Origin: a virus
IMG/VR virus record: IMGVR_UViG_3300042565_001021
Location: 64,001-128,000 of that record
Length of the DNA stretch: 64,000 nt
Direction: 5' to 3' (one strand)
Numbering within the stretch: the first letter of the stretch is position 1; each line of letters starts with the position of its first letter. Positions 3,450-40,754 of the stretch are shown here, one piece after another. Both the position numbers and the translations under genes were made by a program. Below the pieces are notes generated by a model, which worked only from the letters and a program-made list of their open reading frames with translations, ran no database searches and had not been told where the DNA came from.

Positions 3450-3866
3450 TTAGCTCGCCTTACAGCCAAGTGCCTTCAATGCGTTGACGAATTCTCTGCG
3501 GTTAGCCTTGTTCATCACAGGAAGTTTCTCAACGTGTAACGAGGTCGCTCCGGTGACCCACCGGCAACGATCGCAGGCGTCTTTTGCGTCCTTCAGACCG
3601 TAGCCCGTGTATTGACGCACAGTTTTAATCACTTCAACATACATTGGCACATTTGCGTCAATCAGTCGCACATCGCCGAGATGCGTCCCGGTCATCATAG
3701 TAAAGAAAACCGCGCCCTTGAAATCCTGACCGACAGTGGTGGCAATCGTGCCCCACATTTCCATGCCGGCTTCGGGCCCCCAGAGCTCAGTAATTGTCCG
3801 CATGAAGTCTGTTCCGGACACAATCAGATCTTCTTGCTGCTCAGATGTTAGTGTATTGTAGTCCAA
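3450..3866 (-). CDS. protein with ribosomal bL12 (L7/L12) C-terminal-like domain
   Basis: VEVIKTVRQYTGYGLKDAKDACD resembles bL12 CTD VIKxVRxxTGLGLKEAKD. Confidence 0.75.
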   Translation of the reverse strand: MDYNTLTSEQQEDLIVSGTDFMRTITELWGPEAGMEMWGTIATTVGQDFKGAVFFTMMTGTHLGDVRLIDANVPMYVEVIKTVRQYTGYGLKDAKDACDRCRWVTGATSLHVEKLPVMNKANRREFVNALKALGCKAS

Positions 3867-3907
3867 TGTATCACTCCAGAATGCTATTTAATGCGACTAT
3901 TATAGCA

Positions 3908-4168
3908 TCATTTGTAACCAAAGTCAACCGAATATATTTGCCGGTACGGAAACACCCTAACAGTGGTGCCGAGCTTTAACGCTAAAAATGTACCTAATGC
4001 TTCATCTTCGCAGTATAGGTCAATATTGGTTCCGGTGGAGCGAACCTCCCATCCTGCTCCTCCAATGGCAATATTTCTATTAGATGGCAACCAGTATCGT
4101 TGCTCGGAGATGTTGTCGTTACACCAGCTAACTACATTCTGAACCTTGTTACCTATTATTACGCCCAT
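3908..4168 (-). CDS. 'L(K/R)W'-family-like small protein (degenerate)
   Basis: VVSWCNDNI...GW...EDEALGTFLALKL; start uncertain. Confidence 0.55.
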   Translation of the reverse strand: MGVIIGNKVQNVVSWCNDNISEQRYWLPSNRNIAIGGAGWEVRSTGTNIDLYCEDEALGTFLALKLGTTVRVFPYRQIYSVDFGYK

Positions 4169-4467
4169 TTTAGTTTCAATAGCGTCATTACCTCTTCGGA
4201 AACGTCGTACCACACACCTTTCACTTGCCGAACAATGAAGTAATCTTTATCTTCTACAAATGTTGCTCGTATCCATGTTAGCACTTTAGCATCGGCGGTA
4301 ATTGAATACATAGTCACACCGTCGACTACTGCCGATTCTAATACTGAATACATTTTTAATACCCCATACATCGGTTGAACTCCGACAATCTCGGCCGCAA
4401 TTAGATTAGGTACTATTCTTCGTATAAACGGAATCAGTACTTTTTGAAATTCTGTATGGTCTATCAT
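4159..4467 (-). CDS. 'L(K/R)W'-family protein with N-terminal gp23 Gol-like peptide
   Basis: VLIPFIRRIVPNLIAAEIVGVQPM followed by domain ending LLKLKWA. Confidence 0.8.
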   Translation of the reverse strand: MIDHTEFQKVLIPFIRRIVPNLIAAEIVGVQPMYGVLKMYSVLESAVVDGVTMYSITADAKVLTWIRATFVEDKDYFIVRQVKGVWYDVSEEVMTLLKLKWA

Positions 4468-4778
4468 AACCATTTTAATCTGAACATGAGCAGGTCTGCC
4501 TCATTGCGAAGAAAGATTCGGCAGTTTTTCTCACTGTGAGATATTCTCCAACGGTGCCTGCTGTGGTTACCGTCTGTCCCAAAGGCTTCTTTACACCAGG
4601 CTATTGCGTCGTGCCATTGCCTTAAAGGTATGTCAATTGCCCACTCGCCGTGGTAAGCTTTTCTTATCCAAATAGCATCAACAAGATACATCGAATCCAT
4701 CCCGTGGAGTACTTCGACGGTCCAGGTCCCTATAAGTTTTCGTGGACTGGCCTTAATCTGTGTCGTTGTTATTTCCAT
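4464..4778 (-). CDS. 'L(K/R)W'-family protein with N-terminal gp23-like peptide
   Basis: EITTTQIKASPRKLIGTWTVEVLHGMD followed by WCKEAFG...RW...NEADLLMFRLKWL. Confidence 0.8.
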   Translation of the reverse strand: MEITTTQIKASPRKLIGTWTVEVLHGMDSMYLVDAIWIRKAYHGEWAIDIPLRQWHDAIAWCKEAFGTDGNHSRHRWRISHSEKNCRIFLRNEADLLMFRLKWL

Positions 4779-4779
4779 T

Positions 4780-5022
4780 TTACTTCCATCGTAGTGTAAA
4801 GTATGACGCGTCGGTTTCGTTTTCAAAAGCAAAGATCGAGTGCAGATAGAAGCCACGCAGGTTTTTTATCCTTGACTTAACTTTTCCGGTCTTGTGTTTT
4901 TCTACCCAGCGGACTAAGCTGCGATGTCGTAATGATCCTTCTGAGACCGGATCTAAGTTTGTGCGGTGTTCGATGGTAGCCAGGTGCCATCCGTTTCGAA
5001 GCGACTTGCGCAGCGATGCCAT
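4780..5022 (-). CDS. 'L(K/R)W'-family small protein
   Basis: FAFENETDASYFTLRWK. Confidence 0.75.
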   Translation of the reverse strand: MASLRKSLRNGWHLATIEHRTNLDPVSEGSLRHRSLVRWVEKHKTGKVKSRIKNLRGFYLHSIFAFENETDASYFTLRWK

Positions 5023-5023
5023 T

Positions 5024-5323
5024 TTATTCTGCCTTTCTTTCCCTGATCAAGAATTCAAACAGAGTTCCAATGAAAGCTTCTACTGTAGCCGGACCTGTTA
5101 CTTTTACGTGTGAATAGTCGAGGTTGTGACGCCTGAGAACGTGAATGATATAACTTTCAAACGAGATCCAGTGTCGTACCCAATCTTCCATGTCTTTAAA
5201 TGTATCTGTTCCGTCAAAGTCAATGTAGTATCGATCTTCAATACATCGTCCCGTCACCTTTATCTTTAACGGTGAGCAGTATTCAACTAGCGGTTGAATA
5301 ATAGAACTTACAGTATCATCCAT
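5024..5323 (-). CDS. hypothetical protein
   Basis: 99 aa ORF in operon. Confidence 0.55.
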   Translation of the reverse strand: MDDTVSSIIQPLVEYCSPLKIKVTGRCIEDRYYIDFDGTDTFKDMEDWVRHWISFESYIIHVLRRHNLDYSHVKVTGPATVEAFIGTLFEFLIRERKAE

Positions 5324-5522
5324 TATGTTTCCATTTCAATGTAAAGAGCAATGCGTCTTGCTCGTTGCCAAATATGTATTCGTAAATGATGTCGTTAGTT
5401 ACGCTAACGTCGCTTACGTCAACTCCGTCTATAGTAATCAGATCAAGTTTAGAATCGTCAATGAATCTGCTCATTAAGTTAAGTTGTTCGTATGTTGGGT
5501 CTGCTATTAAAACCGTTTTCAT
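5316..5522 (-). CDS. 'L(K/R)W'-family small protein
   Basis: YIFGNEQDALLFTLKWK. Confidence 0.75.
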   Translation of the reverse strand: MKTVLIADPTYEQLNLMSRFIDDSKLDLITIDGVDVSDVSVTNDIIYEYIFGNEQDALLFTLKWKHNG

Positions 5523-5728
5523 TTCCATTTAAGCGAGATCCACGTGTAGGTCTCTTCCTCCATTTCGACCCAATATAGAATAGCCCCTGGACTAATAAAT
5601 ACCGGAATGCCGTATTCATTGATTAGCAGGTCTGTAAAGTCTCGAGAATTCAACGTGCCAAATTTGTGAGAAACCTTCGGAACAATCTCATTCATCAGTT
5701 TAGGAAATTGTCGTAGATCAACTTTCAT
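5519..5728 (-). CDS. 'L(K/R)W'-family small protein
   Basis: EEETYTWISLKWK. Confidence 0.7.
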   Translation of the reverse strand: MKVDLRQFPKLMNEIVPKVSHKFGTLNSRDFTDLLINEYGIPVFISPGAILYWVEMEEETYTWISLKWK

Positions 5729-5940
5729 AACCACTTCAGAGCAAATAGTGTTGCGTCTTTATCGTTTTCAAAAGTAAACTGTAGGTTCCCAAACATGCTG
5801 TACAGTTCCCACTTGAATGGGTTGTCTTCGTCTCGGGCATCTCTATGAAGCCAGCCGCCTTGACCAACGTTTTCTAGACACCATTGGATCATTTCTTCCT
5901 GTTTATGGTAATACTCTTTGTCAAGGTTAACGCTTTTCAT
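5725..5940 (-). CDS. 'L(K/R)W'-family small protein
   Basis: WCLENVG...FTFENDKDATLFALKWL. Confidence 0.8.
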   Translation of the reverse strand: MKSVNLDKEYYHKQEEMIQWCLENVGQGGWLHRDARDEDNPFKWELYSMFGNLQFTFENDKDATLFALKWL

Positions 5941-5941
5941 C

Positions 5942-6151
5942 TTAACTCCACTTCAACGAAAAGAAAGAGGCATCGTCGGCGTATTCAAACAGCACAGATA
6001 ACCCAAATACTACACTTGGTTGGAACTCTACTTCGCCCCTTGAATTTTTCTTACACCACTTAACCATCTCGGTTGTCTCGTCGAGGTACGGATTAGTAAG
6101 GTGTGGCAGTCGAACCACGGAAGAATTTGCGTACAATCGCCCCATGCCCAT
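5942..6151 (-). CDS. 'L(K/R)W'-family small protein
   Basis: WCKKN...FEYADDASFFSLKWS. Confidence 0.75.
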   Translation of the reverse strand: MGMGRLYANSSVVRLPHLTNPYLDETTEMVKWCKKNSRGEVEFQPSVVFGLSVLFEYADDASFFSLKWS

Positions 6152-6390
6152 TATACGCCCACCCTATTAACGATTCCGTAGATGTTAGCTAACATGAAGT
6201 AAGAGTTAACTATTAGCACCGAACGAAGCGATTCAGACGCTTCGGACTTTACGATGAGCCATATAGATGCGCCGCAGCCGACGCAGAAGAAGCAGTAACC
6301 TATCAACTGTATCTCAACCTGCGCAGTAGCCACTAACGCGGCGCCGACAATGTTACCGATCAGCGCCAACGCATCCATTAGCTTTTTCAC
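6151..6390 (-). CDS. small membrane protein
   Basis: About three hydrophobic segments. Confidence 0.65.
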   Translation of the reverse strand: MKKLMDALALIGNIVGAALVATAQVEIQLIGYCFFCVGCGASIWLIVKSEASESLRSVLIVNSYFMLANIYGIVNRVGV

Positions 6391-6629
6391 TCTTTGCCTT
6401 CCCTTGCTACAAACAGAACACAGCCAAAGTTCCAGCGTGTTAGTATCTTGTGTTCTTTGTCGGAGCCATCGACGATGACCTTCGAAATGTACCTGTCGTC
6501 TGACGACGCGGAGCTAGGTCGCTGCTTGCCCGAGATCAGCGTGTGTTTGCAGTAATTGACATTGCCGGCATCATATGGAAAGCCACTGCCGTCGCCGTCA
6601 CCCCAGAACTTACAACGAGAGCATTTCAT
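6387..6629 (-). CDS. Cys-rich small protein
   Basis: CSRCKFW...C...FGC. Confidence 0.65.
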   Translation of the reverse strand: MKCSRCKFWGDGDGSGFPYDAGNVNYCKHTLISGKQRPSSASSDDRYISKVIVDGSDKEHKILTRWNFGCVLFVAREGKE

Positions 6630-6913
6630 GTTTCTTGCCTTCCTTTAAATTTTAAGAAAAGTGCTGTTAAAAGAGGATCGTCTGACGGAAGATGAATCGT
6701 TATATACCGAGACCCAGTTGACTCTTGTACAAAGTCTCTTACGTCTTTATGAAACAATTTTACCAGCGTCTTTTCGTTACAGACCGCGAATACAAAATCT
6801 GCGCCCTGGGACGGATCGTCTAGTGCTGCCATTCTAATCCTTATGTGAGAAAGGTACTCGCTCAATGAGCAGTTTTCCCATGTACGTAGATTTATCTTAC
6901 GCTTCCGCGACAT
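6626..6913 (-). CDS. hypothetical protein
   Basis: 95 aa; ends LTALFLKF, possibly a distant 'LKW' relative. Confidence 0.5.
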   Translation of the reverse strand: MSRKRKINLRTWENCSLSEYLSHIRIRMAALDDPSQGADFVFAVCNEKTLVKLFHKDVRDFVQESTGSRYITIHLPSDDPLLTALFLKFKGRQET

Positions 6914-7355: not shown

Positions 7356-7399
7356 ACTAACACTATACACTCTTTCGAGGAGTGTGTCAACCAGTATTT

Positions 7400-9355: not shown

Positions 9356-9393
9356 AGCCTTAATTATACTATCTTTTTTGGTTTTTGTCAACC

Positions 9394-21332: not shown

Positions 21333-22559
21333 TTAATAGCGTAATCCAGCCATTTCTTCTATGTATTCGCGGAGTTCTTTGTCGATGGCTGGCTTGGCAA
21401 TGATGTTCCAAATGCGATCTTGCACTTCGTATCTCAAATCCATCGAGTCATACAGCGTATCTTTTTCTGCTATGTCTTCGAAGTCCATGTTCATGCTGCC
21501 CAACCAATCGCCTATTATAAACTGTACGTCGGTATCATCTAAGTCCTCGCCTGCTAAGAACATGTCAGAATCTAGGCCGGCTATAATCGCATCGGTTAGT
21601 CCTTGCCCGTCTCGAAGAAGTGCGTTATGTACTAGCGTAGATAACTTTCGAGGAATATGACCGTTGGATTGTTTTGCTAACGTGCGATAAATCGCATCGC
21701 TTACTTTCAACACTAAGTTCCTGTTACTAACTGACCGTAAAATTGTCTCAGCCATACTATGTTTAAGGTTCTCGAAGTCTTCGGCGAATTCTTCGGCACC
21801 AACTACAAACTCAACTACGTTGTTTGCTAATGCCTCGTTCATAAACAGATCAACCACTTGCGGGAACCTTCGTAGTAACGGGTCTAACTTAATAGGTATG
21901 TCCTGTATGTCCATAAACTGTCTGGCGCGGAAATGGAACTGGTACTTTTCTCCAGGACTAACAGGTGCCTTAGGTAAAAGGATGTATAAGTTTCCTTCCT
22001 TGTTGTAACGCTCAAACATGTTATTATTCTTTGCTGCCGTACACCAAGTTGTACCTTGCCCGTAATACTTCGCTGCTTCTACGTTCAGTATATGCAGGAT
22101 CCGTAAAGTGTCGTCGTCGAGCACTACGTTTACTTGTCCTTTATCTACTACGACATCTTGCGGTTCAGGATAAGTAGCAACGGTTTGCTCAAAGTCTTGC
22201 ATTGACCTGAACCGGTTGATATCTCTGTGCTCTGGCTTGAGTTGCTGCTTAGTCTTTAGCTTGTGGAACCGCTCTAACGCAGATGCGCCGCGTGATTCAA
22301 AGTCTTCGTACTTAGTAACGACGCCAAGTTGAGCAGCATAGGTTTTACATAACCACTGGGTGTATTCTTTGTGCGGGGTTGGATCCATTTCCTCGAAACC
22401 CCCAAGCAACCAGTTTATGTCGATTTCCGTTTTATTTAATTCGTCTTGTTGATCGTAAATTGATCGATCCTTTTTAGCAACCGCGAGAAGCTTTTCACCA
22501 AAGTTTTGTGCTGTGGTTTGACGATTGTACTCTACCAGGAATTCTACTGCTCTTACCAT
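21333..22559 (-). CDS. putative capsid-internal protein, PcfJ-like region
   Basis: Leader MVRAVEFLVE; DPT..KEYTQW, RDIN, AAKYYGQGTTWCTAA, EKYQFH. Confidence 0.75.
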   Translation of the reverse strand: MVRAVEFLVEYNRQTTAQNFGEKLLAVAKKDRSIYDQQDELNKTEIDINWLLGGFEEMDPTPHKEYTQWLCKTYAAQLGVVTKYEDFESRGASALERFHKLKTKQQLKPEHRDINRFRSMQDFEQTVATYPEPQDVVVDKGQVNVVLDDDTLRILHILNVEAAKYYGQGTTWCTAAKNNNMFERYNKEGNLYILLPKAPVSPGEKYQFHFRARQFMDIQDIPIKLDPLLRRFPQVVDLFMNEALANNVVEFVVGAEEFAEDFENLKHSMAETILRSVSNRNLVLKVSDAIYRTLAKQSNGHIPRKLSTLVHNALLRDGQGLTDAIIAGLDSDMFLAGEDLDDTDVQFIIGDWLGSMNMDFEDIAEKDTLYDSMDLRYEVQDRIWNIIAKPAIDKELREYIEEMAGLRY

Positions 22560-22978
22560 CGCGCCGCTGCCTTTACAAGTTCTATACTTAGTGGTTCTAC
22601 GCTTACTATTTGATCGGGAGTTACCCAGCCTTTCTTCTTTAGCCATTTGCCTTCGTTGCTTGCTTGTGACAACGGATCTGAATCATCTACTTCCCACGTA
22701 TTTATATCGTCGTTAAACGATACGATAGAGACAATGCCCGAGCCCATCTTCTTAGCTAATTCCCATTCCCACTTTGCTGCCCAGCGTGTTGCGTCCTTCT
22801 TGGATGTCATAGCAAAGATCTCGCCAATGTTGCCATACTGGCCGCCTGCTGCTTTAACAAAATTAGTAGGGTTAGCACCAGTAATCCCTTTAGCTTGGAT
22901 TTTTGAAACTGTTACAGTTCTAGTAACGTGATACAAAGTTGCCCCGGTTGATTCAGTTATAAACTCTTTAGCTTTCAT
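22553..22978 (-). CDS. putative capsid-internal protein, ART/Tpt1-like
   Basis: Leader MKAKEFITE; TLYHVT....I...GI. Confidence 0.65.
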   Translation of the reverse strand: MKAKEFITESTGATLYHVTRTVTVSKIQAKGITGANPTNFVKAAGGQYGNIGEIFAMTSKKDATRWAAKWEWELAKKMGSGIVSIVSFNDDINTWEVDDSDPLSQASNEGKWLKKKGWVTPDQIVSVEPLSIELVKAAARW

Positions 22979-23829
22979 TACCATCCTCCCGGCGGCTCTG
23001 CAGGCAACCCTGCCCCTTTAAGGTCAGAAGCAGAAACTTTTGCTCCACCAGGTGGTGAAACCGGTTTTGGTTCTTTAACTCCGTTCTTCGAATCTACAAA
23101 TCGTTTCCATAAGCTCTTCTCTATTGCTATACACTTCCCACTAAACCATACCTCGTTTTTCATAGGGTGGTTTAAAGCAAAAGACTTGATAGTTTTAATT
23201 TGCATGCCTGTCCTGTCAGGAGCCATGCCTCTGTTTAAGACATCAATGAAATCCTCTGACCCAACTTTTCCGTTTGACAGATACCGTAACTCTTTTTCTA
23301 CTCTTGGCATCTTTACTGCTTTGACAAACTCAGCGTATGAAGTGTCGGGTAAGTACAGATAGTTTCTACACATGTCAGCGATGCCTTCAAACGTGGTGTG
23401 AATGTTAGGTTCAAACTCTGGCAAATGCGCCTTCACTTCCCATATGTCTTTCTCTGGACAAATGCCTATCCTTGTTCCGTTGAACGGAAATAAAGCATAT
23501 AAAGATCCACCAAATGCGTTAGCATACGTCCGATCACTTGTAGCAATTAAGCTCTTGCTACGCTTTGGCCAAAGTGCGTAATTAGGACTATTGTCCATCA
23601 ATAGCGTATAGTGATTAGAAGTGTTCTGTGACTTGCGCTCGCTGTTTGTTGTATCAATGAACACTAACGGTTCTTGGTGGTCTTTCATTGAACGCCAGAT
23701 CGGATTCTCTAACATAGGCAGAGCTTCTGTACAGTGAGCGTTCAGCAGCTCCATAGCCTTCTCTAGCTGAAGGTTCTCAGCCTGGTATGGGGTAACCGCG
23801 GCTTCAACAGTAAATTCTTTTGCTCTCAT
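22978..23829 (-). CDS. putative capsid-internal protein, possible ART fold
   Basis: Leader MRAKEFTVE; IWRS, RSKSLIATS, NEVW; paralogue of 29280..29972. Confidence 0.65.
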   Translation of the reverse strand: MRAKEFTVEAAVTPYQAENLQLEKAMELLNAHCTEALPMLENPIWRSMKDHQEPLVFIDTTNSERKSQNTSNHYTLLMDNSPNYALWPKRSKSLIATSDRTYANAFGGSLYALFPFNGTRIGICPEKDIWEVKAHLPEFEPNIHTTFEGIADMCRNYLYLPDTSYAEFVKAVKMPRVEKELRYLSNGKVGSEDFIDVLNRGMAPDRTGMQIKTIKSFALNHPMKNEVWFSGKCIAIEKSLWKRFVDSKNGVKEPKPVSPPGGAKVSASDLKGAGLPAEPPGGW

Positions 23830-23831
23830 GA

Positions 23832-24461
23832 TTACTCGAATGTCACCCAAGGATCGGCAGCTATTATAGTCCCGTCTGCTCTCATTAACCAATTCTCAGA
23901 ATGTAGGTCAAGAATGATTTCTGTTAGGTTATGCGCATCAGCATACACTTGCGCAGCTTTATAAAGAAATGTTGTTGCTTCTAATATTCCGCTTACGGTG
24001 TTTGCACCAGTAAGCTTACTGTCAAGTAATACCTGTTCTAATCTATTAGATTCGTAACCTAAACCGTGTCCTTCGCACTTGACTGAGTTGGCGACATCCC
24101 ATAATACATTTGCGAGATAGTCGTTGTTAAGAGGATACAATCGTTCAATTCTGATTTGTAACACTTCCTCTGCGTCTACGTCTATACCATGTATAACCGG
24201 AAAATGTTTACTTTTGTACCCGTGGTCTACACAGAAGTGCACAAATGCCAAAGATGCTTTATGAACTCCTTTATCGGAGCCACCGAACCCGCCGCCTACG
24301 ACTTTAACGACAGTATCAGGGTCAGAAAAATGATTCCACACTGTGGCTGTGTATCCTTTGCCAACTTGGTTCCATCCAGACTGCTTACGAATTTCATCGT
24401 TAACGAATCCTGGGTCAAGCTCGTTTAGCTGTTCGTTCTCGAATAGTTCAGTTAGAAACAT
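23832..24461 (-). CDS. putative capsid-internal protein kinase-like enzyme
   Basis: Leader MFLTELFE; GKGYTATVW, VVKV, DLHSENWL, ADP. Confidence 0.78.
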   Translation of the reverse strand: MFLTELFENEQLNELDPGFVNDEIRKQSGWNQVGKGYTATVWNHFSDPDTVVKVVGGGFGGSDKGVHKASLAFVHFCVDHGYKSKHFPVIHGIDVDAEEVLQIRIERLYPLNNDYLANVLWDVANSVKCEGHGLGYESNRLEQVLLDSKLTGANTVSGILEATTFLYKAAQVYADAHNLTEIILDLHSENWLMRADGTIIAADPWVTFE

Positions 24462-24468
24462 AATATTC

Positions 24469-25017
24469 TCATAATGTGAACAGTGGACCTTGGATAAACC
24501 AGGTCTCTGTCCTTTCTTTAATCATTCCGTTGCGTAAAGCTTCGATGACGTCGGGTGTAAAGTCTCGATTCCGCCAACCTGATATTATCAGATGTGTTTC
24601 GACCGGAGCGTTACCTTCGAGCTCTAACTGGGCATTCATTCGGTGTCTACCTTCGTGCCCAGTTACCCAAGCCGGGAGAATAAACTTTCCGTTCTCCCAT
24701 TCTTCGTCTACGCTTATGTATAGTGTTGGTGCGCCGAAGCTTCCTCCGGTTCGAGCATGATTTTTCATTTTTTCAATGCTGCTTCTTGCTGAGTCGTCAA
24801 CGGTCAAGTTGCTTGCTAAATTTAAGAACTTGCTTGGCTTCATCATCACCCGCAGGCCCATGTAATCGATTTCTTGGTTGTTAGGCGTCTGGCCCCAACC
24901 TGATTGGTTATCAATGTTTAGCTCAGTAATTCTTGTCAACTCTTCAGACAACACCTTATCGACTTCTTTCTGAAGAATATCAAATACCGTTTCGTTAATG
25001 AATTCTTGTGCTCTCAT
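24469..25017 (-). CDS. putative capsid-internal ParB/Srx-like protein
   Basis: Leader MRAQEFINE; MKPSKFL, P.L, GHEGRHR. Confidence 0.7.
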   Translation of the reverse strand: MRAQEFINETVFDILQKEVDKVLSEELTRITELNIDNQSGWGQTPNNQEIDYMGLRVMMKPSKFLNLASNLTVDDSARSSIEKMKNHARTGGSFGAPTLYISVDEEWENGKFILPAWVTGHEGRHRMNAQLELEGNAPVETHLIISGWRNRDFTPDVIEALRNGMIKERTETWFIQGPLFTL

Positions 25018-25868
25018 TAGTCGTTCGCTCCTGGCGCCCACATATCTCCGTTAGGCTTAAAGCTAGTGCTGTTGCTGTTCGATCCGCTCTTATCAATTCC
25101 TGGGCGGGCTCCCCTCTCGTCGCTAGAGACGACCTTGTCACCGCTAACATCGCTGCTCCGTTCGTCTCGTTCGTCTGAGTAAAAATATCCTTGCTCGTCA
25201 CTGAATACCTGATCTGCTTCGGAATACCACGGGTCAGCAGCTATGATAGTTCCGTTTGGCCTCATTAACCAGTTGCCGCCGTGCAAATCTATCCAGCCTT
25301 CGTTTATATTGTGAGCTTCCAAATAAACTGGTAAGGCCTTGCTCAAATACTTAATAGCTTCGACTATCTCGTCGACGTTATTGTTCTCTTTCATGCCCTG
25401 TATTCCTGAATACTTCATTGCTGACAGCAATTCGATTTTCGATTTAGTTAATGCTGCGCCGCCGGTAACAGCATTAGCTAATCTGCTTAGACCGCTCCTT
25501 ACGTCACCGCTACTAATAGGAAGCAACTTCTCCATTCTGATCTGTAATACTTCGGCGTCGTCTATGTTTATTCCGTGAACGATAGGATAGTGCTTACTCG
25601 TGTGTCCGTGATCAACTAGAAAGTGAATAAACGCTAAAGTAATATTTCGATAGCCACCTTGCGCTTCGTAGTCTCCACCACCGACTACTTTAACTACGGT
25701 GTCTGGTTCTTGATAGTGTTGCCAAACTGACGCAGTAGCACCTTGTCCTAGCTTATCCCAGGCTCGTAAGTTTTTAAACTTACCTTGTGATTGCTGCTTG
25801 ATAACCTGGTTAACATAATCCGGGGCAAGTTCGGTTAGTTCAGTGTCAAATAATTCAGTTAGGAACAT
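25017..25868 (-). CDS. putative capsid-internal protein kinase-like enzyme
   Basis: Leader MFLTELFD; LGQGATASVW, VVKV, DLHGGNWL, ADP; TAAATA just upstream. Confidence 0.78.
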   Translation of the reverse strand: MFLTELFDTELTELAPDYVNQVIKQQSQGKFKNLRAWDKLGQGATASVWQHYQEPDTVVKVVGGGDYEAQGGYRNITLAFIHFLVDHGHTSKHYPIVHGINIDDAEVLQIRMEKLLPISSGDVRSGLSRLANAVTGGAALTKSKIELLSAMKYSGIQGMKENNNVDEIVEAIKYLSKALPVYLEAHNINEGWIDLHGGNWLMRPNGTIIAADPWYSEADQVFSDEQGYFYSDERDERSSDVSGDKVVSSDERGARPGIDKSGSNSNSTSFKPNGDMWAPGAND

Positions 25869-25877
25869 AGTTAGTAT

Positions 25878-26822
25878 TTACCTGTCGAACAATGCTGCGA
25901 TTTCTGCGGATTTCTTAGCTAACATCTCTTTAGTGTACTTTGCCTTCTCTATTGCCGCAGGGGTTTCTGCTTTGGCGAACTTACTGCTATTTATCGCTGT
26001 GTTGATTTTACCTAAGTAGATTTCTTTTACTCTCGGAATAAGTTCTTCTTTGCCTACGCTCTGTAAGATGCCTTTAATACTGTCGATCATATCGGCTACG
26101 CGGACTTCTCCGCCTACTAACCCGGGATACTGCTTAACTAACGGAGATGGTGTTCCTCCGAAAAACTTAACTATGTCAAGTGCCCAGGTCTTTGGGTTGT
26201 TAGTGACTGTCTTTAGGTCAACATCCTTAACTGTGCGGAACGGGACGAATGTGCCATTTTGGAATTTTGCTTGAACTCCGTGGCCGCCGCCGATGCTCAG
26301 ATTGAGGACTTCACCGAGCGACGAGTAAAGTGAGTTTGCTAACACACCTTTCATGTTCCACTCTGGCCGTAGTGCGTTAGTCCAGTCTTTATTCTCGTAG
26401 TAAGATGTGATTAGGTCGATCTGAACATAATCGTTTCCTATCTTTAGGATAACATTAACGCCGTTGTCTGAAGAAAAAGCAGAGGTTGAATCGCAAAACT
26501 CTTTAATAGCGTCGTTGTAGATCTTAAGGTTTGCGTTATTTGTGGTTCCTTCAATGCGTGGGATATGGAACTGGACATCAACGTCGCCATACTCTTTGTC
26601 TGGCTGTTGAACTAAGTCCCGTTCGTAGTATGTTGCGCTGCCACCCGGTGCCGATATCTCTGTTGGTCCTAATCCTTTTGTCTTTAGGAAGTTGTTCAAG
26701 GCGGGAATAAACTGAGTAGTTAATACCTTCATACATTGCTGAACGAGCCGTGGGGTAATAACTGTGTTTTGTGTTAGTGTCGATGCCCATCCACCTTCTA
26801 AAATAATTTCGTTAATTTTCAT
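25878..26822 (-). CDS. putative capsid-internal pol-beta-type nucleotidyltransferase
   Basis: Leader MKINEIILE; GGS...YGDVDV...VQIDLI. Confidence 0.7.
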   Translation of the reverse strand: MKINEIILEGGWASTLTQNTVITPRLVQQCMKVLTTQFIPALNNFLKTKGLGPTEISAPGGSATYYERDLVQQPDKEYGDVDVQFHIPRIEGTTNNANLKIYNDAIKEFCDSTSAFSSDNGVNVILKIGNDYVQIDLITSYYENKDWTNALRPEWNMKGVLANSLYSSLGEVLNLSIGGGHGVQAKFQNGTFVPFRTVKDVDLKTVTNNPKTWALDIVKFFGGTPSPLVKQYPGLVGGEVRVADMIDSIKGILQSVGKEELIPRVKEIYLGKINTAINSSKFAKAETPAAIEKAKYTKEMLAKKSAEIAALFDR

Positions 26823-27604
26823 AATATGTTCTTATCCCCAATAAACCAGGTTGTATTCATAAGATTTTCACTCATTTCCTTATTAGTTTTTAGATGTCGA
26901 GTCATCTTACTTTCAATGAATATTTCGCTTGGTCCTGCTTTTTCATATGCTGCTTCATTCCATTCTTTTTCTAAAGAGTTGATATCCGGGAAATCACCGG
27001 TTTGATCAGTTAATGTTAATCCTCTACCTTTAGCTAAGATAAGTTTCTTAAGCCATGTAAATCCTTCAGGAGTTAACCCTTCATTTTTTGAGATTTGTAT
27101 TTTTACTACAGCTTTAAGACGATGTGTTACGCAGCCAATTAATGCAGTAACATAACCGGGACCATTAACAAAGTTCCTAATTCCTTTTAACTCATTTCCT
27201 TTTAGTATTACTAGTGCATCAATACTGTCATCACCAATGAACGAGTAGACATCTTGATCATTTATATTACAGTGATATACATCTTTACCATCTAAACTAT
27301 TTACAATTTGAGATTTAGTAATTATTTGATTTTTCATATCTTGAGTTATATCTAATGCAGAATGGGCGTAGTCAATTTCAGTTAACCCTTCTTCGTTTGT
27401 CATCAACTTTTTAACACGCGGCTTGAATAGCTGGACATCTCCCTTATCGGTCTTTAACACTGGCTGATTGTGCTTATCCTTCTTAAAGCCTTTGATCTCG
27501 GCAGGGCTGTTCTTAAATTTACCCTTCATTACAACATCCCCGGTTTCCAATTCCGGAGGTTGGTAGGTTTCTGCACCTTCTACAATAAACTCGTTTGCTC
27601 TCAT
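26819..27604 (-). CDS. putative capsid-internal two-domain protein
   Basis: Leader MRANEFIVE; GKFKN small domain, internal LTE, GNAT-like remainder. Confidence 0.65.
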   Translation of the reverse strand: MRANEFIVEGAETYQPPELETGDVVMKGKFKNSPAEIKGFKKDKHNQPVLKTDKGDVQLFKPRVKKLMTNEEGLTEIDYAHSALDITQDMKNQIITKSQIVNSLDGKDVYHCNINDQDVYSFIGDDSIDALVILKGNELKGIRNFVNGPGYVTALIGCVTHRLKAVVKIQISKNEGLTPEGFTWLKKLILAKGRGLTLTDQTGDFPDINSLEKEWNEAAYEKAGPSEIFIESKMTRHLKTNKEMSENLMNTTWFIGDKNIL

Positions 27605-28011
27605 TCTTTGTTGCCACCTTTATATAGATCAGCAATACCTTTGCCAAAGTCATTTCCGTTGTATATACGCATAGACGATGGGATAATATCGTTGCCTAAC
27701 TCTTTAGCAAAGACATACATCTCTTTCGCAATACCTTGTCGGCGATACTCTGGCTTTACTTCGACGAATACTGCTTCTAAGTTGTTGTCTGTCACTTTGT
27801 ATGTTACGTTGCCTACTTTGTTGCCTTTAGCAGTGAAGGCGTCAATGTGAAAGTTTTCGCTTGTATTAATCTTCTTAGTTGGCGAATACGGTAGCGGGCC
27901 GTGGTATGCTTTAAGCATATACTTGCCGCCGAGTATCTCTTTCGTCTTTTCAAACCCGCGGCGGAATACTTGCGGGTTGATGCTGTCAGTTATGAACTCA
28001 GATGATTTCAT
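27601..28011 (-). CDS. putative capsid-internal GNAT acetyltransferase
   Basis: Leader MKSSEFITD; VEVKPEYRRQGIAKEMY. Confidence 0.78.
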   Translation of the reverse strand: MKSSEFITDSINPQVFRRGFEKTKEILGGKYMLKAYHGPLPYSPTKKINTSENFHIDAFTAKGNKVGNVTYKVTDNNLEAVFVEVKPEYRRQGIAKEMYVFAKELGNDIIPSSMRIYNGNDFGKGIADLYKGGNKE

Positions 28012-28448
28012 TGCACTCCTTTAATTACTAATCGCCAATCACTAAATTTTAATCGCAACACAGTTAAGAACTGATCTTTATCTGACTCAGTCTGAAATAG
28101 TAAAGTGTTACTAAGCTTATCCCCACTAACTCGCTCACCGTCCGGAAATCGATATATCTGTCCTAAGTATTCAAAATAAAACATGTCAGTTTGATGATCT
28201 TGTAATACTACTGGACCAGAAAAGTGTTTCACTGATAATAATTTACCAAGAGGAATAACAAGAAAACTAACTGGAGAAACCTTTGCCCCGATCTGCGGTG
28301 TAACTTGTTGCTGTTGAGCCAAGAAACTTTGAAGAATCTTAAAATCATCATTATCCTCAAATAACTCAGGACGATCTAATAGCATAATACGGACATCCTC
28401 GTATTGCTCATCTAACACATCAATATAAGAGAACTCAGAGGATTTCAT
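28008..28448 (-). CDS. putative capsid-internal protein
   Basis: Leader MKSSEF. Confidence 0.6.
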   Translation of the reverse strand: MKSSEFSYIDVLDEQYEDVRIMLLDRPELFEDNDDFKILQSFLAQQQQVTPQIGAKVSPVSFLVIPLGKLLSVKHFSGPVVLQDHQTDMFYFEYLGQIYRFPDGERVSGDKLSNTLLFQTESDKDQFLTVLRLKFSDWRLVIKGVQ

Positions 28449-28870
28449 ATTTGCTGTAACACCGGAATTGATGTTAACCCTAATTCAATAGCTCGTTGCA
28501 CACGGTGATTTCCGTCTATTATAAAACCATCTTTAGCTAATACCGGTGGAGTTTGAGTTAAACTTTGATAAGTAACATTTCTGGCGCGAGCCTGGTCCAT
28601 TTTAAATGGATCAGAGTTAATAATATCCGTCCCTGCTTCTTGATCGCTAAACGTTCTATATCGAGATGCTTCGTCAGAACTAATATTTGTTAATTTATAT
28701 TTGTGCTTAGAGATATACGTCCTATCACCTGCACCCAAATACATGTGCTCATCTAAATAATCTGCTACTACACTTCCGCGCACTATGTCACCAGGTTTGC
28801 CCCAAGCAAAGCCAACAACTCGCTTAATAAAGTCGATCAACCCCTCAGTTATGAATTCTGTCGACTTCAT
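28445..28870 (-). CDS. putative capsid-internal ParB/Srx-like protein
   Basis: Leader MKSTEFITE; PPVL....IIDGNHRV..A..LG...IPV. Confidence 0.75.
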   Translation of the reverse strand: MKSTEFITEGLIDFIKRVVGFAWGKPGDIVRGSVVADYLDEHMYLGAGDRTYISKHKYKLTNISSDEASRYRTFSDQEAGTDIINSDPFKMDQARARNVTYQSLTQTPPVLAKDGFIIDGNHRVQRAIELGLTSIPVLQQI

Positions 28871-29280
28871 TATCTCTTCCGTGTGCAAGCAGGGTGTGAA
28901 CCGTCACTCAATGATTTGCGGATTGCTTCGGAGTAGCGTGTCCATTTCGTTAGCTCTGCGTCGCTCAGTTCCATAAAGCGATTGTCCATCTCTACCCAGG
29001 CTTTTTCAATATCCGTTAATGGTTTGTTATACTGGTATTCGTGCTCGCGGATCTTATCTTCAGCGTTGATTGCTGCTGCGCGATGCTGTACAATACACTT
29101 CTTCGCTGCTTCGCTTGCTGCACCAGAATCAAAACGGTTCTTACCTTCAAAGCGTCCAATCTCTTTGCCATCAGCAGTAGCTACGAAGGTGTTCGTTAAA
29201 TCACCATCCTCGTCTTGGAGGCGGGTAATCTCATACTTTACCTTGCGAGCATCTTCTTTTAGGAATTCTTTGCTTAACAT
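28870..29280 (-). CDS. putative capsid-internal protein
   Basis: Leader MLSKEFLKE. Confidence 0.6.
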   Translation of the reverse strand: MLSKEFLKEDARKVKYEITRLQDEDGDLTNTFVATADGKEIGRFEGKNRFDSGAASEAAKKCIVQHRAAAINAEDKIREHEYQYNKPLTDIEKAWVEMDNRFMELSDAELTKWTRYSEAIRKSLSDGSHPACTRKR

Positions 29281-29972
29281 TAAACGGTTTCTCCCCAGGC
29301 AGTCATTAAGTTAACCACCATGCTGTCATTGTTTGGTCCATACAAAGGGAGTAAATAAAAAGACTCAGCGTGTAGCATAACTTCGTTTTTACTTCTGACT
29401 GCTTCTTTAACTGCGCCGACTTGATAGTCCCCGTCATCAAGCATCCATTTAATGGCCCCTATTAGGTTACGGTTGTTAGTATCTCCAACCCAATAACTCT
29501 TGCTAAATCCCGCTGCGGCAACTACCTCGCTAGGATAATGGTTAAACAAGAACATGTCGAGATGCTCAGTAAGGTCAGATATCTCGGGCGACCAACAAGC
29601 AGTAAATTCTCCTCTTGGAATGACTAATAAAGGATTGCCGTAGTCTCTAGCCATACCTTGAGATCCGGTCGCAAACAAAGCATTACTTCTGAACTTTATG
29701 CCAGTCGTTTCCTCGAAATATGCGTCGGCAATCTGATGAATAGCAAGGGGAGTATCTTTTGGCTTTCTGTTGACCGGGCACATGAGCACAGTGACTTGGT
29801 CAACACCCCTTCTTCCGTGATATAAGTCGTGCCTGTATAAGTCAAAGTCGATGGACTTTAGGTAAGGTTGACACTCGCTTTTTAGTACCTCAGCAAAACG
29901 GCGGAATTCCGGGGAGATAACAATTTCTTTCCCGGCTACAGTTACTTCAGTTATAAATTCAGAGCTTTTCAC
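29280..29972 (-). CDS. putative capsid-internal protein, possible ART fold
   Basis: Leader MKSSEFITE; LYHG, RSNALFATG, NEVM. Confidence 0.65.
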   Translation of the reverse strand: MKSSEFITEVTVAGKEIVISPEFRRFAEVLKSECQPYLKSIDFDLYRHDLYHGRRGVDQVTVLMCPVNRKPKDTPLAIHQIADAYFEETTGIKFRSNALFATGSQGMARDYGNPLLVIPRGEFTACWSPEISDLTEHLDMFLFNHYPSEVVAAAGFSKSYWVGDTNNRNLIGAIKWMLDDGDYQVGAVKEAVRSKNEVMLHAESFYLLPLYGPNNDSMVVNLMTAWGETV

Positions 29973-35766: not shown

Positions 35767-35961
35767 TTACAGCCATTTTAGCTTAAACATTAGGAATTCT
35801 GCTTCGGTTTTGAACGCAAAGTTTCGCATACCAACTCGCTTCCCAGATTGAGTAGCCGTACACCATTGTTCCATGTCATTCAATGTTGGCATTTGTGTAT
35901 CGGAAGTGTCTATTTTAACCATGATGTAGTTTTCGGTGTATGCTACTTCTTTAATTTTCAT
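35767..35961 (-). CDS. 'L(K/R)W'-family small protein
   Basis: WC...GKR...FAFKTEAEFLMFKLKWL. Confidence 0.75.
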   Translation of the reverse strand: MKIKEVAYTENYIMVKIDTSDTQMPTLNDMEQWCTATQSGKRVGMRNFAFKTEAEFLMFKLKWL

Positions 35962-36337
35962 TTTTGCCCGACCAAATTAAAGCAAACCATACAGCATCTT
36001 TTTCTTGCGTGAAGCTAAACGTAACAGGTGCCCATCCTACAGCCTTCCATGAGCGTTTGCTTTTGATGTTATGATAACACCAGTCAACCCGTGGGTCCAC
36101 ATCAGTTACATACTTTACCATTTTTGGCACTGTAATATGGTACTTCATTTTCTGCTCGGCCCAGGTCAGAGCAAACAAAACCGCGTCTGCTTCTTTATAG
36201 AACCAGAATCGCACTGGTTGATAACACGAGTAATCCCACTCGGCATAGTTCATTCGTTCAAGACACCAATGGATGCGCGGGTCCTGAGCTTCTAATCGAG
36301 TATCTGGCAAATCTATCATGTGGGAACACCTCTTCAT
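35951..36337 (-). CDS. 'L(K/R)W'-family tandem two-domain protein
   Basis: DPR..WC...EADAVLFALTW then DPR..WC...EKDAVWFALIW. Confidence 0.75.
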   Translation of the reverse strand: MKRCSHMIDLPDTRLEAQDPRIHWCLERMNYAEWDYSCYQPVRFWFYKEADAVLFALTWAEQKMKYHITVPKMVKYVTDVDPRVDWCYHNIKSKRSWKAVGWAPVTFSFTQEKDAVWFALIWSGKNEN

Positions 36338-36759
36338 GATCCACCCCACCGCAGCGCGAACCACATGAAATCTTTTTCGTCTTTGAACGCGAAGAACACG
36401 TAATCGAGGCCGCCGATATCGTTGAGGCAGTAACCGTTATATTCTGTTTTAATCACCCGGTGGACGTCATAGCGGTACTTGTGCTTTATATTTTCTTTAC
36501 ACCAGTTATCCATTTCATCTAATGCTTGTAACCAGTCGCCGTACTTTGTCCAAATGTCTCCGAGCGGATCTTCAAACGTGCGAACGTAAGGATACCCCTC
36601 ATACCAATTTGTAATTTGGGTTGCTCGGTAAATGACATCGGGGTCAAACCTACGTGCGTATTCCTCTTCGGACTCGCACCCGTTCTTTTTTAGAAACCTT
36701 TTTCGTTTCTTCTCGTGATATTTTTTCGAGAGAGTTTCAAAGTAACCTTTTAAGACCAT
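36334..36759 (-). CDS. 'L(K/R)W'-family protein with N-terminal extension
   Basis: WCKENI...FAFKDEKDFMWFALRW. Confidence 0.75.
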   Translation of the reverse strand: MVLKGYFETLSKKYHEKKRKRFLKKNGCESEEEYARRFDPDVIYRATQITNWYEGYPYVRTFEDPLGDIWTKYGDWLQALDEMDNWCKENIKHKYRYDVHRVIKTEYNGYCLNDIGGLDYVFFAFKDEKDFMWFALRWGGS

Positions 36760-36998
36760 TTTAGAGAAAACATGATTAGTTGCTGCTCGTCAACGAAACG
36801 AATCATAGCCTTTTTATTCAACTTAACGATTTCTGCTCCGCCGTATTCTTCAAATAGCCAATCTCGAAAAGCTTTTCCTTCACCGTAATTAGAAGGAATA
36901 TAGTACCTACCTATACCTAATCCGTGCGGCGGATCTATGTTGCGACTCTCGTACCAATGGAGCAGCACCTTTGCGCCGATAGGGTTATACGGTATCAT
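36750..36998 (-). CDS. 'L(K/R)W'-family small protein
   Basis: FVDEQQLIMFSLKWS. Confidence 0.7.
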   Translation of the reverse strand: MIPYNPIGAKVLLHWYESRNIDPPHGLGIGRYYIPSNYGEGKAFRDWLFEEYGGAEIVKLNKKAMIRFVDEQQLIMFSLKWS

Positions 36999-37006
36999 TG
37001 AATATT

Positions 37007-37222
37007 TTACGACCATCGCAGTAGAAACAGCATACGTTCTTTGTCATCACGAAATCTAAATGCGTTAAACGAGAGTCTTACTCCGCAGTCGTTTTCTTTA
37101 CACCAAATTTCAAGCTCGTCAAGCATAGTGCTCATTCGCACAGCTCTATCGCCTGCTACAGCAAACACAGAGATCTCAGAAACTCCGAGAGTGACAAACT
37201 CTAATTTTTTGCCGAACGACAT
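37007..37222 (-). CDS. 'L(K/R)W'-family small protein
   Basis: WCKENDCGVR...FRFRDDKERMLFLLRWS. Confidence 0.75.
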   Translation of the reverse strand: MSFGKKLEFVTLGVSEISVFAVAGDRAVRMSTMLDELEIWCKENDCGVRLSFNAFRFRDDKERMLFLLRWS

Positions 37223-37223
37223 T

Positions 37224-37511
37224 TTAGTGTAGCGTGTGAGTTTTATACCCTTGAATCAGCACCTGGAGTCTCAGAAGCTCAGCTGTTACCTCGGGCGCAA
37301 GAGAAGCAATGGTTGCCTCGTGGATCCGAATCGCTTTCATGTTCTCGTCAAACTCGAGAAATGCCCCGCAGTAAAAGCACAGCGAAACATCGCCTGGTGC
37401 TGGGCCGCCCTGGCCTTCTTGCGAAGGAGAAGCAGCATCCAGCATTGATTCACAGCAAGGGCAAGTGACCTCTGGCAATAATGTTACTTCTGGTTCAAAA
37501 GACGAAGTCAT
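37224..37511 (-). CDS. Zn-ribbon hypothetical protein
   Basis: CPCC...P.PGD.SLCFYCG. Confidence 0.65.
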   Translation of the reverse strand: MTSSFEPEVTLLPEVTCPCCESMLDAASPSQEGQGGPAPGDVSLCFYCGAFLEFDENMKAIRIHEATIASLAPEVTAELLRLQVLIQGYKTHTLH

Positions 37512-38680: not shown

Positions 38681-38938
38681 TTATCGCGGTCCGGTGCTTC
38701 CCGTTCCTGTATCAAATGGCCATCTGGCTCGGGGAGCTTTATCTAACAAGTGCCCAGCAAGTAACAGGAACCAAGCTAAATCTTTTTCATTCGCAAAATA
38801 AAACTCGTCGTTGTTTGTCCTTGACCAACGGACATATTCTAAGCCAAAATGATCCTGGCAGATTTTAGTCACTTCGAAAAAGTGCGCCCCGTAAGTGTTT
38901 GGCGCTTTGAACCAGTGTTCGAAAATTACTTCTTTCAT
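38681..38938 (-). CDS. 'L(K/R)W'-family small protein
   Basis: CQDHFG...RW...FYFANEKDLAWFLL. Confidence 0.7.
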   Translation of the reverse strand: MKEVIFEHWFKAPNTYGAHFFEVTKICQDHFGLEYVRWSRTNNDEFYFANEKDLAWFLLLAGHLLDKAPRARWPFDTGTGSTGPR

Positions 38939-39252
38939 TTCTTTAGCGGAATGTAAGGAGCGTAGAATGCTGCTCCCTCATAACCAACCATTAAAGAAGA
39001 CGTGTTGGACAGATGGCTACCTGTCAGGGCAAACCAGGTTATGTCCTTCTTGTAGCGAAACTGGAGAACACCACCAAATGTTAGCCTCCAGTTGCCGTGG
39101 TTGTCTCTTGTCTTTTTAGTAGCGTGGTTGTAGGATGTGCTGTGCTCTGGTCCAAAATGCTGAGTACATAACTGCCGTACTTCCTCACGCTTGTACGAGT
39201 ACCTGCCTTCAGCTTCGTACCATGATACTTTAGTTTTAGTTTTCTTGCTCAT
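38935..39252 (-). CDS. 'L(K/R)W'-family protein with C-terminal gp23-like peptide
   Basis: CTQHFG...W...FRYKKDITWFAL then LMVGYEGAAFYAPYIPL. Confidence 0.78.
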   Translation of the reverse strand: MSKKTKTKVSWYEAEGRYSYKREEVRQLCTQHFGPEHSTSYNHATKKTRDNHGNWRLTFGGVLQFRYKKDITWFALTGSHLSNTSSLMVGYEGAAFYAPYIPLKK

Positions 39253-39473
39253 TATGACCACCTCAGCAAAAACATTTCACGATCCTCGTCGCGCTCAAAG
39301 TATATCTGACCAAAAATGTTGTCAAAGAAATAACTTCCTATGCCTTCATATTCTTCTAACCAGTCCAACTGCCGCAAGACATTCTCGTCTTTTCTCGGAT
39401 CCCATAATGCTGCCCCGCTGTTAATAACAGGTTGCCAGTCGGTGCCTATCATTCCGTTTAGTTCTCGTCTCAT
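39252..39473 (-). CDS. 'L(K/R)W'-family small protein
   Basis: YFERDEDREMFLLRWS. Confidence 0.75.
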   Translation of the reverse strand: MRRELNGMIGTDWQPVINSGAALWDPRKDENVLRQLDWLEEYEGIGSYFFDNIFGQIYFERDEDREMFLLRWS

Positions 39474-39715
39474 GACCATTTCAGTAAAAACATTTCACGA
39501 TCTTCGTCGCGTTCAAAGTAATACAGCTTGAAATGCGGATCGGAATAGTATTTTCCTAACCCTTCATACTCAGCTAGCCATATTTCAATCTGAATACCTT
39601 CAAACGAAATTCCGCTAAGATAGTCAAAGTCAATTAGCTCTCTTTCGAGATTCACGCACTGCCACTCGGTGCCAATCATCCCGTTAGTTTCGCGTTCCAC
39701 TGCTACTCCAACCAT
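39470..39715 (-). CDS. 'L(K/R)W'-family small protein
   Basis: YFERDEDREMFLLKWS; close paralogue of the adjacent gene. Confidence 0.75.
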   Translation of the reverse strand: MVGVAVERETNGMIGTEWQCVNLERELIDFDYLSGISFEGIQIEIWLAEYEGLGKYYSDPHFKLYYFERDEDREMFLLKWS

Positions 39716-39927
39716 AGTAATGAAAACATCATAGCATCCTTTTCGTCAGCAAAGTAATAAGTGGTTATCCAGTCCTCTTTGTTGCGTGACGCCGATTCAT
39801 TGACGACAAACTTACCCCTGCCCACTACGTTACAAGCCCAGGCATATCTATCTTTAGGAGCACCTGGACCAGATCGTTTGCCAGAGTTCCCTTGAAGTTT
39901 TACCGGGTAAGGAAATTCAACTTTCAT
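39703..39927 (-). CDS. 'L(K/R)W'-family small protein
   Basis: YYFADEKDAMMFSLLW. Confidence 0.75.
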   Translation of the reverse strand: MKVEFPYPVKLQGNSGKRSGPGAPKDRYAWACNVVGRGKFVVNESASRNKEDWITTYYFADEKDAMMFSLLWLE

Positions 39928-40136
39928 GTATTTCCCCATTTAAGAGCAAACATAACAGCGTCTTTCTCTTGTTGGAACAAGTATTCGCTGCGACAAAACC
40001 CTCCGGAAACACAGTCCCACTCTACTTCTTTTTTACCTAAGTGTTTCCTAGCCCAGGCAATCCGCTCCGATCCAATCCGCCCGTTTTTAACTATAATAGA
40101 GAACGGATAATAAGTTTTTTGTTTAAGAGTTGTCAT
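39924..40136 (-). CDS. 'L(K/R)W'-family small protein
   Basis: YLFQQEKDAVMFALKW. Confidence 0.75.
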   Translation of the reverse strand: MTTLKQKTYYPFSIIVKNGRIGSERIAWARKHLGKKEVEWDCVSGGFCRSEYLFQQEKDAVMFALKWGNT

Positions 40137-40327
40137 TATGCCCACCTCAACGCAAACAGCACGGCATCTTGTTCGTTGTAGAATACAAATGTTTTGTTAG
40201 CATCAAAATACCACGTAGACGGCGACGGCCGTCCAAACTGATCAAACGCCCAAGCCCAGCATTCTAAAATACCGTCTCTCTCGCGATACATGCGGCGTTT
40301 CTCATCGCTTATAGTAAATTTATTCAT
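40136..40327 (-). CDS. 'L(K/R)W'-family small protein
   Basis: FVFYNEQDAVLFALRW. Confidence 0.75.
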   Translation of the reverse strand: MNKFTISDEKRRMYRERDGILECWAWAFDQFGRPSPSTWYFDANKTFVFYNEQDAVLFALRWA

Positions 40328-40533
40328 TTTACCCACCTTAACGCAAACAGCATGGCGTCTTTCTCATCTCTAAACGCATAAAGTCCAGAATAACAACACT
40401 TCCATCGTTCGGGCACGTCGCCGAACATTTCCATCGTCCACTTTATTCTTTCTTGGTCTGGATTCGTATCGCAGTGAACAGCGTAAGGAAACTTAAAACT
40501 GTCTGGAAGAAGGTCGAGTTCGTCAGTTTTCAT
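40324..40533 (-). CDS. 'L(K/R)W'-family small protein
   Basis: YAFRDEKDAMLFALRW. Confidence 0.75.
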   Translation of the reverse strand: MKTDELDLLPDSFKFPYAVHCDTNPDQERIKWTMEMFGDVPERWKCCYSGLYAFRDEKDAMLFALRWVK

Positions 40534-40754
40534 TTAACCCACCTCAGAGCGAACAGAACAGCGTCTGATTCTTTTTCAAAGGAAAACGTAAGTGGCCCGT
40601 ATCCTGTGTCTTCGTCTTCATGGGTGCTAGTCATTCGTCCGGTTATGTTCTTTGCTACCCAGCAAGCAGACCCTTGCATAACGCATTCGGTCCAGTTGTC
40701 AACAATGACGTTATACGGATACGGTGCCCATGGCAATTTTCTGTTCACAGCCAT
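40530..40754 (-). CDS. 'L(K/R)W'-family small protein
   Basis: FSFEKESDAVLFALRW. Confidence 0.75.
   Translation of the reverse strand: MAVNRKLPWAPYPYNVIVDNWTECVMQGSACWVAKNITGRMTSTHEDEDTGYGPLTFSFEKESDAVLFALRWVK

Follow-up and report, generated by a model that had tools for sequence, protein, structure and literature searches.

A capsid segment homologous to the Gol region on a small accessory protein of an uncultured giant freshwater phage

The window, a stretch of 64,000 nucleotides, corresponds to bases 64001-128000 of a 155-kb IMG/VR virus record. Given that the record is estimated to be 44% complete, it is probably a fragment of a phage of ~350 kb, and the full capsid gene is absent from it. 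DNA of the window recurs across lake and freshwater metagenomes from many studies (2020-2025), and the source is an uncultured giant freshwater phage with a T4-type capsid. Of particular interest here are three small genes on the minus strand, referred to below as genes A, B and C, each of which carries a short segment related to the capsid protein (Table 1).

The open reading frame of gene B spans 4159-4473, and its likely start is the second ATG, at 4467, where the sequence reads ATGA and the start overlaps the stop of the upstream gene A. Translation from this point gives a product identical to a database protein (P0001), as recorded by gene callers. Its N-terminus, MIDHTEFQKVLIP, runs directly into the capsid-like segment, capsid block 1. 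A sequence-only reading of this DNA had placed a look-alike of the Gol peptide of T4 at 4363-4443, at the N-terminus of a small non-structural protein. These positions translate exactly to the 27 residues that it gave (KVLIPFIRRIVPNLIAAEIVGVQPMYG), and the protein is indeed small and not a capsid protein, with 102 amino acids and matches to only 30 of the 376 positions of the Pfam Gp23 profile. P0001 lacks the HK97-fold body of a full capsid protein (P and A domains; ~400-520 amino acids), and the genuine capsid proteins in related genomes have 392-462 amino acids and are encoded elsewhere.

Table 1. Coordinates of the features discussed, counted from the first base of the window
Feature	Position	Strand	Basis
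138-aa protein, C-terminal half bL12-CTD-like	3450..3866	-	PF00542, E 2.5e-6, 28.1 bits
Sigma-70-like promoter, 11/12, extended -10, ahead of the bL12-like gene	3899-3927	-	Consensus match only
Gene B, 102-aa P0001, capsid block 1 and LRW-type domain	4159..4467	-	ORF list, sequence, identical database protein
Array of about nine overlapping small LRW genes, C-termini F.L[KR]W	4159..6913	-	ORF list, motif, profile comparison
Folded C-terminal domain of gene B, strand-strand-helix-strand-strand-helix, ending LLKLKWA	4162..4353	-	pLDDT, profile-profile match
Capsid block 1 (Gol look-alike), residues 6-35 of P0001	4363..4452	-	Pfam Gp23, T4 gp23 alignment, AlphaFold2
Gene A, 104-aa P0065, N-terminal capsid block 2 and LRW-type domain	4464..4778	-	Pfam Gp23, hhalign, motif search
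Capsid block 2, EITTTQIKASPRKLIGTWTVE..HGMD	4695..4775	-	hhalign, motif, Pfam, pLDDT
Sigma-70-like promoter, TTGACA-17-TATAGT, 11/12, head of the LRW array	7362..7390	-	Consensus match only
Sigma-70-like promoter, 12/12	9363-9391	- (coding strand)	Consensus match only
Gene run with M[KR]xxEF[IT]xE-like leaders (MRAKEFTVEA, MRAQEFINET, MRANEFIVEG, MFLTELFENE)	21333-29972	-	Resembles T4 capsid-targeting sequence
Two further LRW arrays	35767-37255; 39252-40769	-	C-terminal motif
Gene C, 105-aa LRW-type protein, C-terminal capsid block 3	38935..39252	-	Capsid HMM, regex, tblastn
Capsid block 3, SLMVGYEGAAFYAPYIPL	38944..38997	-	Capsid HMM, regex

Block 1 matches Pfam Gp23 (PF07068) with an E-value of 8.3e-8 and 32.5 bits, over profile positions 3-32 of 376, where the curated cut-off is 24.4 bits; it also matches PHROG 138, 'major head protein', with an E-value of 1.8e-7. 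In a search of solved structures, residues 10-35 of P0001 align with residues 94-119 of T4 gp23, AVMGMVRRAIPNLIAFDICGVQPMNS, with 13 of 26 identical, and the T4 sequence with which the peptide had first been compared proved to be correct. The resemblance to Gol that was first seen by eye is true homology, well beyond chance. The core of the block, [MI]IR[RK]..P..IA..I.GVQPM, covers 20 residues and is conserved in 34 small proteins at the same positions as in capsid proteins, with conservation usually ending at GVQPM. Block 1 copies the most conserved stretch of the T4-type capsid protein and, judged from these profile and structure-based alignments, is homologous to the Gol region. When gene B was compared with cultured phages by tblastn, capsid genes were the only matches, those labelled 'hypothetical' being unannotated or fragmented capsid genes.

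The Lit protease cuts EF-Tu at Gly59-Ile60. It is enabled to do so by Gol; a 29-residue peptide of T4 gp23, with a 20-residue core, is sufficient for this function and binds domains II-III of EF-Tu (PMC3014915), which agrees with the background that the sequence-only reading had supplied. The Gol region is also the most conserved part of gp23, for which Kleanthous and colleagues suggested binding to EF-Tu in every host (PMC3014915).

An exhaustive profile search returned 62 clusters at 50% identity, six of which are N-terminal pieces of real capsid proteins. Among 57 non-capsid clusters (50% identity, metagenomes), 33 have block 1, which lies within the first 50 residues in all but one (32 of 33), and 24 of these 33 end in L[KR][WF]. 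The other 24 of the 57 have the same C-terminal domain behind a different N-terminus, without block 1. That the domain occurs both with and without the block shows block 1 to be a modular graft. A scan of metagenome contigs with the family alignment found nothing, and the 'longer' protein search gave nothing at E <= 0.01. In each of the three complete genomes G001, G002 and G003, a normal capsid gene is present and the small gene lies at a great distance from it (at 364 kb and 160 kb, respectively, in G001), and a T4-type capsid protein is present in every complete genome with the small gene.

Between orthologues of gene B, dN/dS is 0.1-0.3, and within block 1 the loci L007 and L010 differ with a pN of 0 and a pS of 0.30; by these measures the combination of block and domain is under purifying selection. 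Between block 1 and the phage's own capsid gene, no more than 2 of 13 and 4 of 17 codons agree, and recent gene conversion from the capsid gene is ruled out by this difference. A start at the downstream methionine, which would leave the peptide out of the product and which had been named in advance as fatal to the idea, is likewise excluded, since dozens of divergent homologues retain the block, which shows the above pN and pS values and is preceded by an ATGA coupling to the upstream stop. Based on the conservation of the block, the selection figures and the codons unlike those of the capsid gene, the tail of gene B is translated, selected at the protein level, and old.

Some loci depart from the common arrangement. 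Block 1 is also found on other tails, for instance on a zinc-ribbon protein (L005), and two Gol-like blocks stand in tandem in P0050. In one locus (L012:5683-6150) the block is placed after an LRW-type domain. On a 27-kb contig, a Gol-like ORF of ~60 amino acids (L029:5857-6192) lies between a gene resembling that for uracil-DNA glycosylase and a gene for a family B DNA polymerase.

The AlphaFold2 model of gene B, built with 41 homologues, has a flexible N-terminal region of 38 residues (pLDDT 52-58) followed by a 64-residue domain (residues 39-102, pLDDT about 95). A flexible tail on a well-folded rest is what would be expected for a displayed linear motif. Compared with 71 paralogues from the arrays by hhalign, the domain gives a probability of 86% and an E-value of 4.9e-6. 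Based on this profile match, the C-terminal domain of gene B is a member of an undescribed family of small proteins from uncultured giant T4-related phages, which we name "LRW" after its C-terminal motif. The hallmarks of the family are a C-terminal helix/hairpin/helix core with W..xF ... F.L[KR]W and an arrangement in overlapping arrays, and gene B shares them. Its eight neighbours at 4464-6913 end in F.L[KR]W. The 155-kb record holds ~20 LRW paralogues, which end in F.L[KR]W[SA], and arrays of 8-22 members occur in other loci (L006, L007, L014). Neighbouring LRW genes overlap start to stop, with the next ATG often lying within the codons for K-W (AAATGG), which points to coupled translation.

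The LRW array members have no match in Pfam or PHROG, and one typical paralogue has no tblastn match in cultured phages. A Foldseek search of the PDB with the domain of gene B gave no match at E <= 0.001. With VIA-align, the best Z score was 5.4 (T4 UvsW N-domain 4.9, eIF1 4.8, Mbp1 4.4), which is not above background, and a search of BFVD returned uncharacterised proteins of uncultured phages only. The Atlas structure search pointed to an AntA domain at a TM score of 0.72, which we regard as a lead only. Between gene B and the bL12-like gene, the ORF at 3908-4168 (minus strand) has the look of a degenerate LRW member (SWCNDNI ... EDEALGTFLALKLG), and its start ATG falls inside the K-W-A codons of gene B.

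Gene A lies directly upstream and, as the overlap of start and stop indicates, is translationally coupled to gene B. Its own start, EITTTQIKASPRKLIGTWTVE..HGMD, matches a different capsid segment, ILKQVVEAKTRKLSARWTFEAAQD..HGLD, which comprises the return strand of the E-loop/I-domain linker and the start of the spine helix. An orthologue of gene A (P0066, 76% identical) matches Pfam Gp23 at positions 135-176 with an E-value of 2.9e-6 and 27.4 bits, above the cut-off. Aligned with the capsid family by hhalign, the block 2 N-termini give a P-value of 5.5e-5, and none of 500 shuffles reached the real score. In a six-frame translation of 395 kb, the block 2 motif occurs in capsid proteins and in the ORF of gene A only. 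As in gene B, the block is modelled as a disordered tail (pLDDT below 55) on an LRW-type domain. Four members of the C-terminal domain family of gene B (P0009, P0019, P0023, P0040) are without block 1 and have an N-terminal block 2 instead, in variants such as PTRQIQANWSID and PRKLNVKWSVE; in P0009, block 2 is followed by a partial block 1, giving two Pfam Gp23 stretches.

In gene C, the capsid segment is C-terminal. Block 3 matches the capsid sequence VGYKG..FYCPYIPL with an internal deletion and corresponds to positions 327-354 of the capsid HMM in a scan of the whole record. Apart from capsid proteins and the ORF of gene C, the regular expression for block 3 hits nothing but a single small ORF, which lies in the complete genome G003, and tblastn of gene C against cultured phages returns only cyanophage gp23/gp24. 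A possible fourth carrier is a frame of 113 amino acids that is not of the LRW type and lies 12998-13339 bases before the start of the window (G000:C1:50661-51002, minus strand); its C-terminal half is similar to the part of the capsid protein around the spine helix (HMM positions 170-223, i-Evalue 1.8e-4 among 1556 frames). Judging from the profile matches, gene B is one of at least three genes that display different capsid blocks. These comparisons suggest that gene B and its sisters constitute a previously undescribed set of capsid mimics.

Based on matches to the promoter consensus, the genes of the array would be expressed early. The late-promoter motif of T4, TATAAATA, is not enriched in comparison with expectation (3 found versus 2.5 expected), and none of its occurrences is near the array. 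In RNA-library contigs from two freshwater metatranscriptomes, the bL12-like gene is represented along with a portion of gene A and further genes of the array; no such contig covers 3936-4471, which includes gene B, in data where coverage is very thin and carry-over of DNA is possible. It had been pointed out that a gene for the factor-binding domain of bL12 lies about 300 bp downstream of gene B, and the distance is in fact 293 bp, with one small ORF between. The bL12-like protein keeps the stretch VIKTVR..GLKDAKD (VIK.VR, GLK[DE]AKD). In the other loci read, the bL12-like gene is not adjacent to the Gol-like gene, and in G001 and G003 the two lie tens to hundreds of kilobases apart. A functional link argued from conserved adjacency is ruled out on this ground. 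We regard the proximity as a coincidence worth noting, and any link between the two genes as uncertain.

It is interesting to consider what a separate copy of a capsid segment could do. A tentative reading, which we put somewhat short of probable, is that gene B presents itself to host factors as nascent or unassembled capsid protein and binds EF-Tu. In this scenario, the LRW carriers would display short flexible copies of conserved linear blocks of the phage's own capsid protein. The exposed tail of gene B would bind the partner that block 1 has in the capsid protein (domains II-III of EF-Tu in the case of the T4 peptide), and the attached folded domain would alter the outcome, for instance by making the complex non-productive. 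A complex of this kind could compete with Lit-type responses, in which the capsid is the trigger and EF-Tu the target; alternatively, EF-Tu itself might be tuned. Both the partnership with EF-Tu and the decoy effect are what we infer for gene B.

We favour a host-directed mimic because EF-Tu is the only documented binder of isolated block 1, as demonstrated for T4, because it is broadly conserved, and because capsid proteins are frequent triggers of bacterial immunity, with EF-Tu involved in several of these systems (bioRxiv 10.64898/2026.01.04.697583). The conservation of EF-Tu across bacteria is high enough to account for a peptide that hardly varies among phages whose hosts are very different. 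The overlapping array, the sigma-70-like promoters and the distance from the capsid gene also count for this reading. Several points count against it. No link to EF-Tu is known for blocks 2 and 3, which the sister genes carry, and a pure EF-Tu/Gol reading leaves them unexplained. In the folded capsid protein the blocks are structural, and their conservation there may be purely structural. From a Gol-like peptide made early, one would expect activation of a Lit-type protease rather than its inhibition, unless the attached domain stands in the way. In addition, a small accessory protein could not titrate EF-Tu, whose abundance is far too high.

A serious rival to this reading is a role in head assembly. 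The blocks could bind the phage's unassembled capsid protein, the scaffolding core or the chaperonin, and so delay, chaperone or size-tune capsid assembly, or they could poison the assembly of a competing T4-type phage; binding to the capsid protein is envisaged as pairing with the strands that the blocks normally contact. Blocks 1, 2 and 3 either lie beside the E-loop/I-domain or form part of the conserved core, and several proteins with such neighbouring structural elements would suit a capsid-directed role, as would the T4-type capsid protein encoded by every complete genome with the small gene. In the unexpanded T4 head, residues 66-105 of gp23 are disordered and L106 points inward (PMC9546572); the T4 structures put these residues inside the unexpanded shell and probably on the scaffold. 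The N-terminal region of gp23 is inferred to contact the scaffolding core, and the head-length mutants A94V and G97S fall inside the Gol block (PMC9546572). However, the genes are part of accessory arrays headed by sigma-70-like promoters and a long way from the head module. Scaffolding proteins are also poorly conserved, whereas the block hardly varies even between very distant phages, and a match between the blocks and the capsid protein of the same phage would disturb its own assembly. On balance, we think that a role directed at assembly is the less likely of the two.

Less likely again, and in our opinion improbable, is that the capsid-like tail serves as a tag by which the small protein is packed into the prohead for delivery with the DNA. 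The N-terminal regions of capsid proteins commonly contact scaffolds, and the block is almost always N-terminal. However, it is C-terminal in gene C and in L012, and the phage already has a T4-type capsid-targeting leader on other genes (Table 1), which gene B is without. The 'TEFQK' of gene B is part of the capsid block itself (cf. the capsid fragment P0059). We give very little credence to the block being a relic of a capsid gene, moved for instance with a homing endonuclease, with only the LRW domain of importance, because, although 24 clusters do have the domain without the block, it is intact in 33 clusters and on several C-terminal subfamilies, has a pN of 0 against a pS of 0.30, differs from the capsid gene in most codons, and is accompanied by two further blocks grafted onto sister genes.

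Returning to the host-directed mimic, this reading could be extended to the sister genes. Giant T4-related phages of lakes might encode a multi-part decoy set, in which small proteins made early, each with one capsid block on a common carrier, pre-empt or jam the surveillance of nascent capsid protein by EF-Tu/Lit-type and other sensors. We regard this wider proposal as possible but rather doubtful. If true, it would represent the first virus to shield its own molecular pattern with self-derived peptide decoys.

Regardless of the true partner, the genes define an abundant, unannotated protein family, and in environmental phages they reveal a modular way of building proteins, the "peptide on a carrier". 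The family of gene B provides an experimental handle on why the Gol region, which may bind EF-Tu in all hosts, is the most conserved in T4-type capsid proteins, and on whether phages use self-derived mimics against the sensing of capsids. Should the head-assembly machinery prove to be the partner instead, the proteins would represent assembly regulators of a new class, encoded by phages whose capsids are very large. The literature searched contains no description of stand-alone Gol-like or capsid-block proteins, and we know of no precedent for a phage displaying parts of its own capsid.

Several known systems share part of this design. Like the internal proteins of T4, the small proteins described here have a short N-terminal tag on otherwise unrelated sequences; the sequence of the tag is different, and the classical tag is found in this phage on genes other than gene B. 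With T4-type gp23/gp24 (PF07068, HK97 fold), blocks 1, 2 and 3 share homology to three conserved capsid segments, whereas only 20-40 residues are common per protein, the HK97 fold is missing, and the real capsid gene lies elsewhere (G001, G002, G003). Among phage anti-defence proteins that work through mimicry or competition, a parallel is offered by DSAD1, which acts against DSR2 (PMC11087589): it and gene B are both small accessory phage proteins, and gene B could likewise take the place of a structural phage protein on a host factor, although the anti-defence role of gene B is a proposed one.

The closest comparison is with Gol, Lit and EF-Tu, the oldest example of immunity set off by the capsid protein, which is the commonest trigger of anti-phage defence in bacteria. 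The system, in which the Lit protease is encoded by e14, was described by Yu and Snyder (1994) and Bingham et al. (2000) and is summarised in PMC3014915. In contrast to T4, where the peptide belongs to the capsid protein, the peptide of gene B is the tail of a separate protein of 102 amino acids, with an unrelated folded domain and a place in an accessory array, and its binding to EF-Tu and any effect on Lit are putative. The two are nevertheless homologous: gene B keeps RR..PNLIA....GVQPM, and the corresponding region of T4 works as an isolated short peptide.
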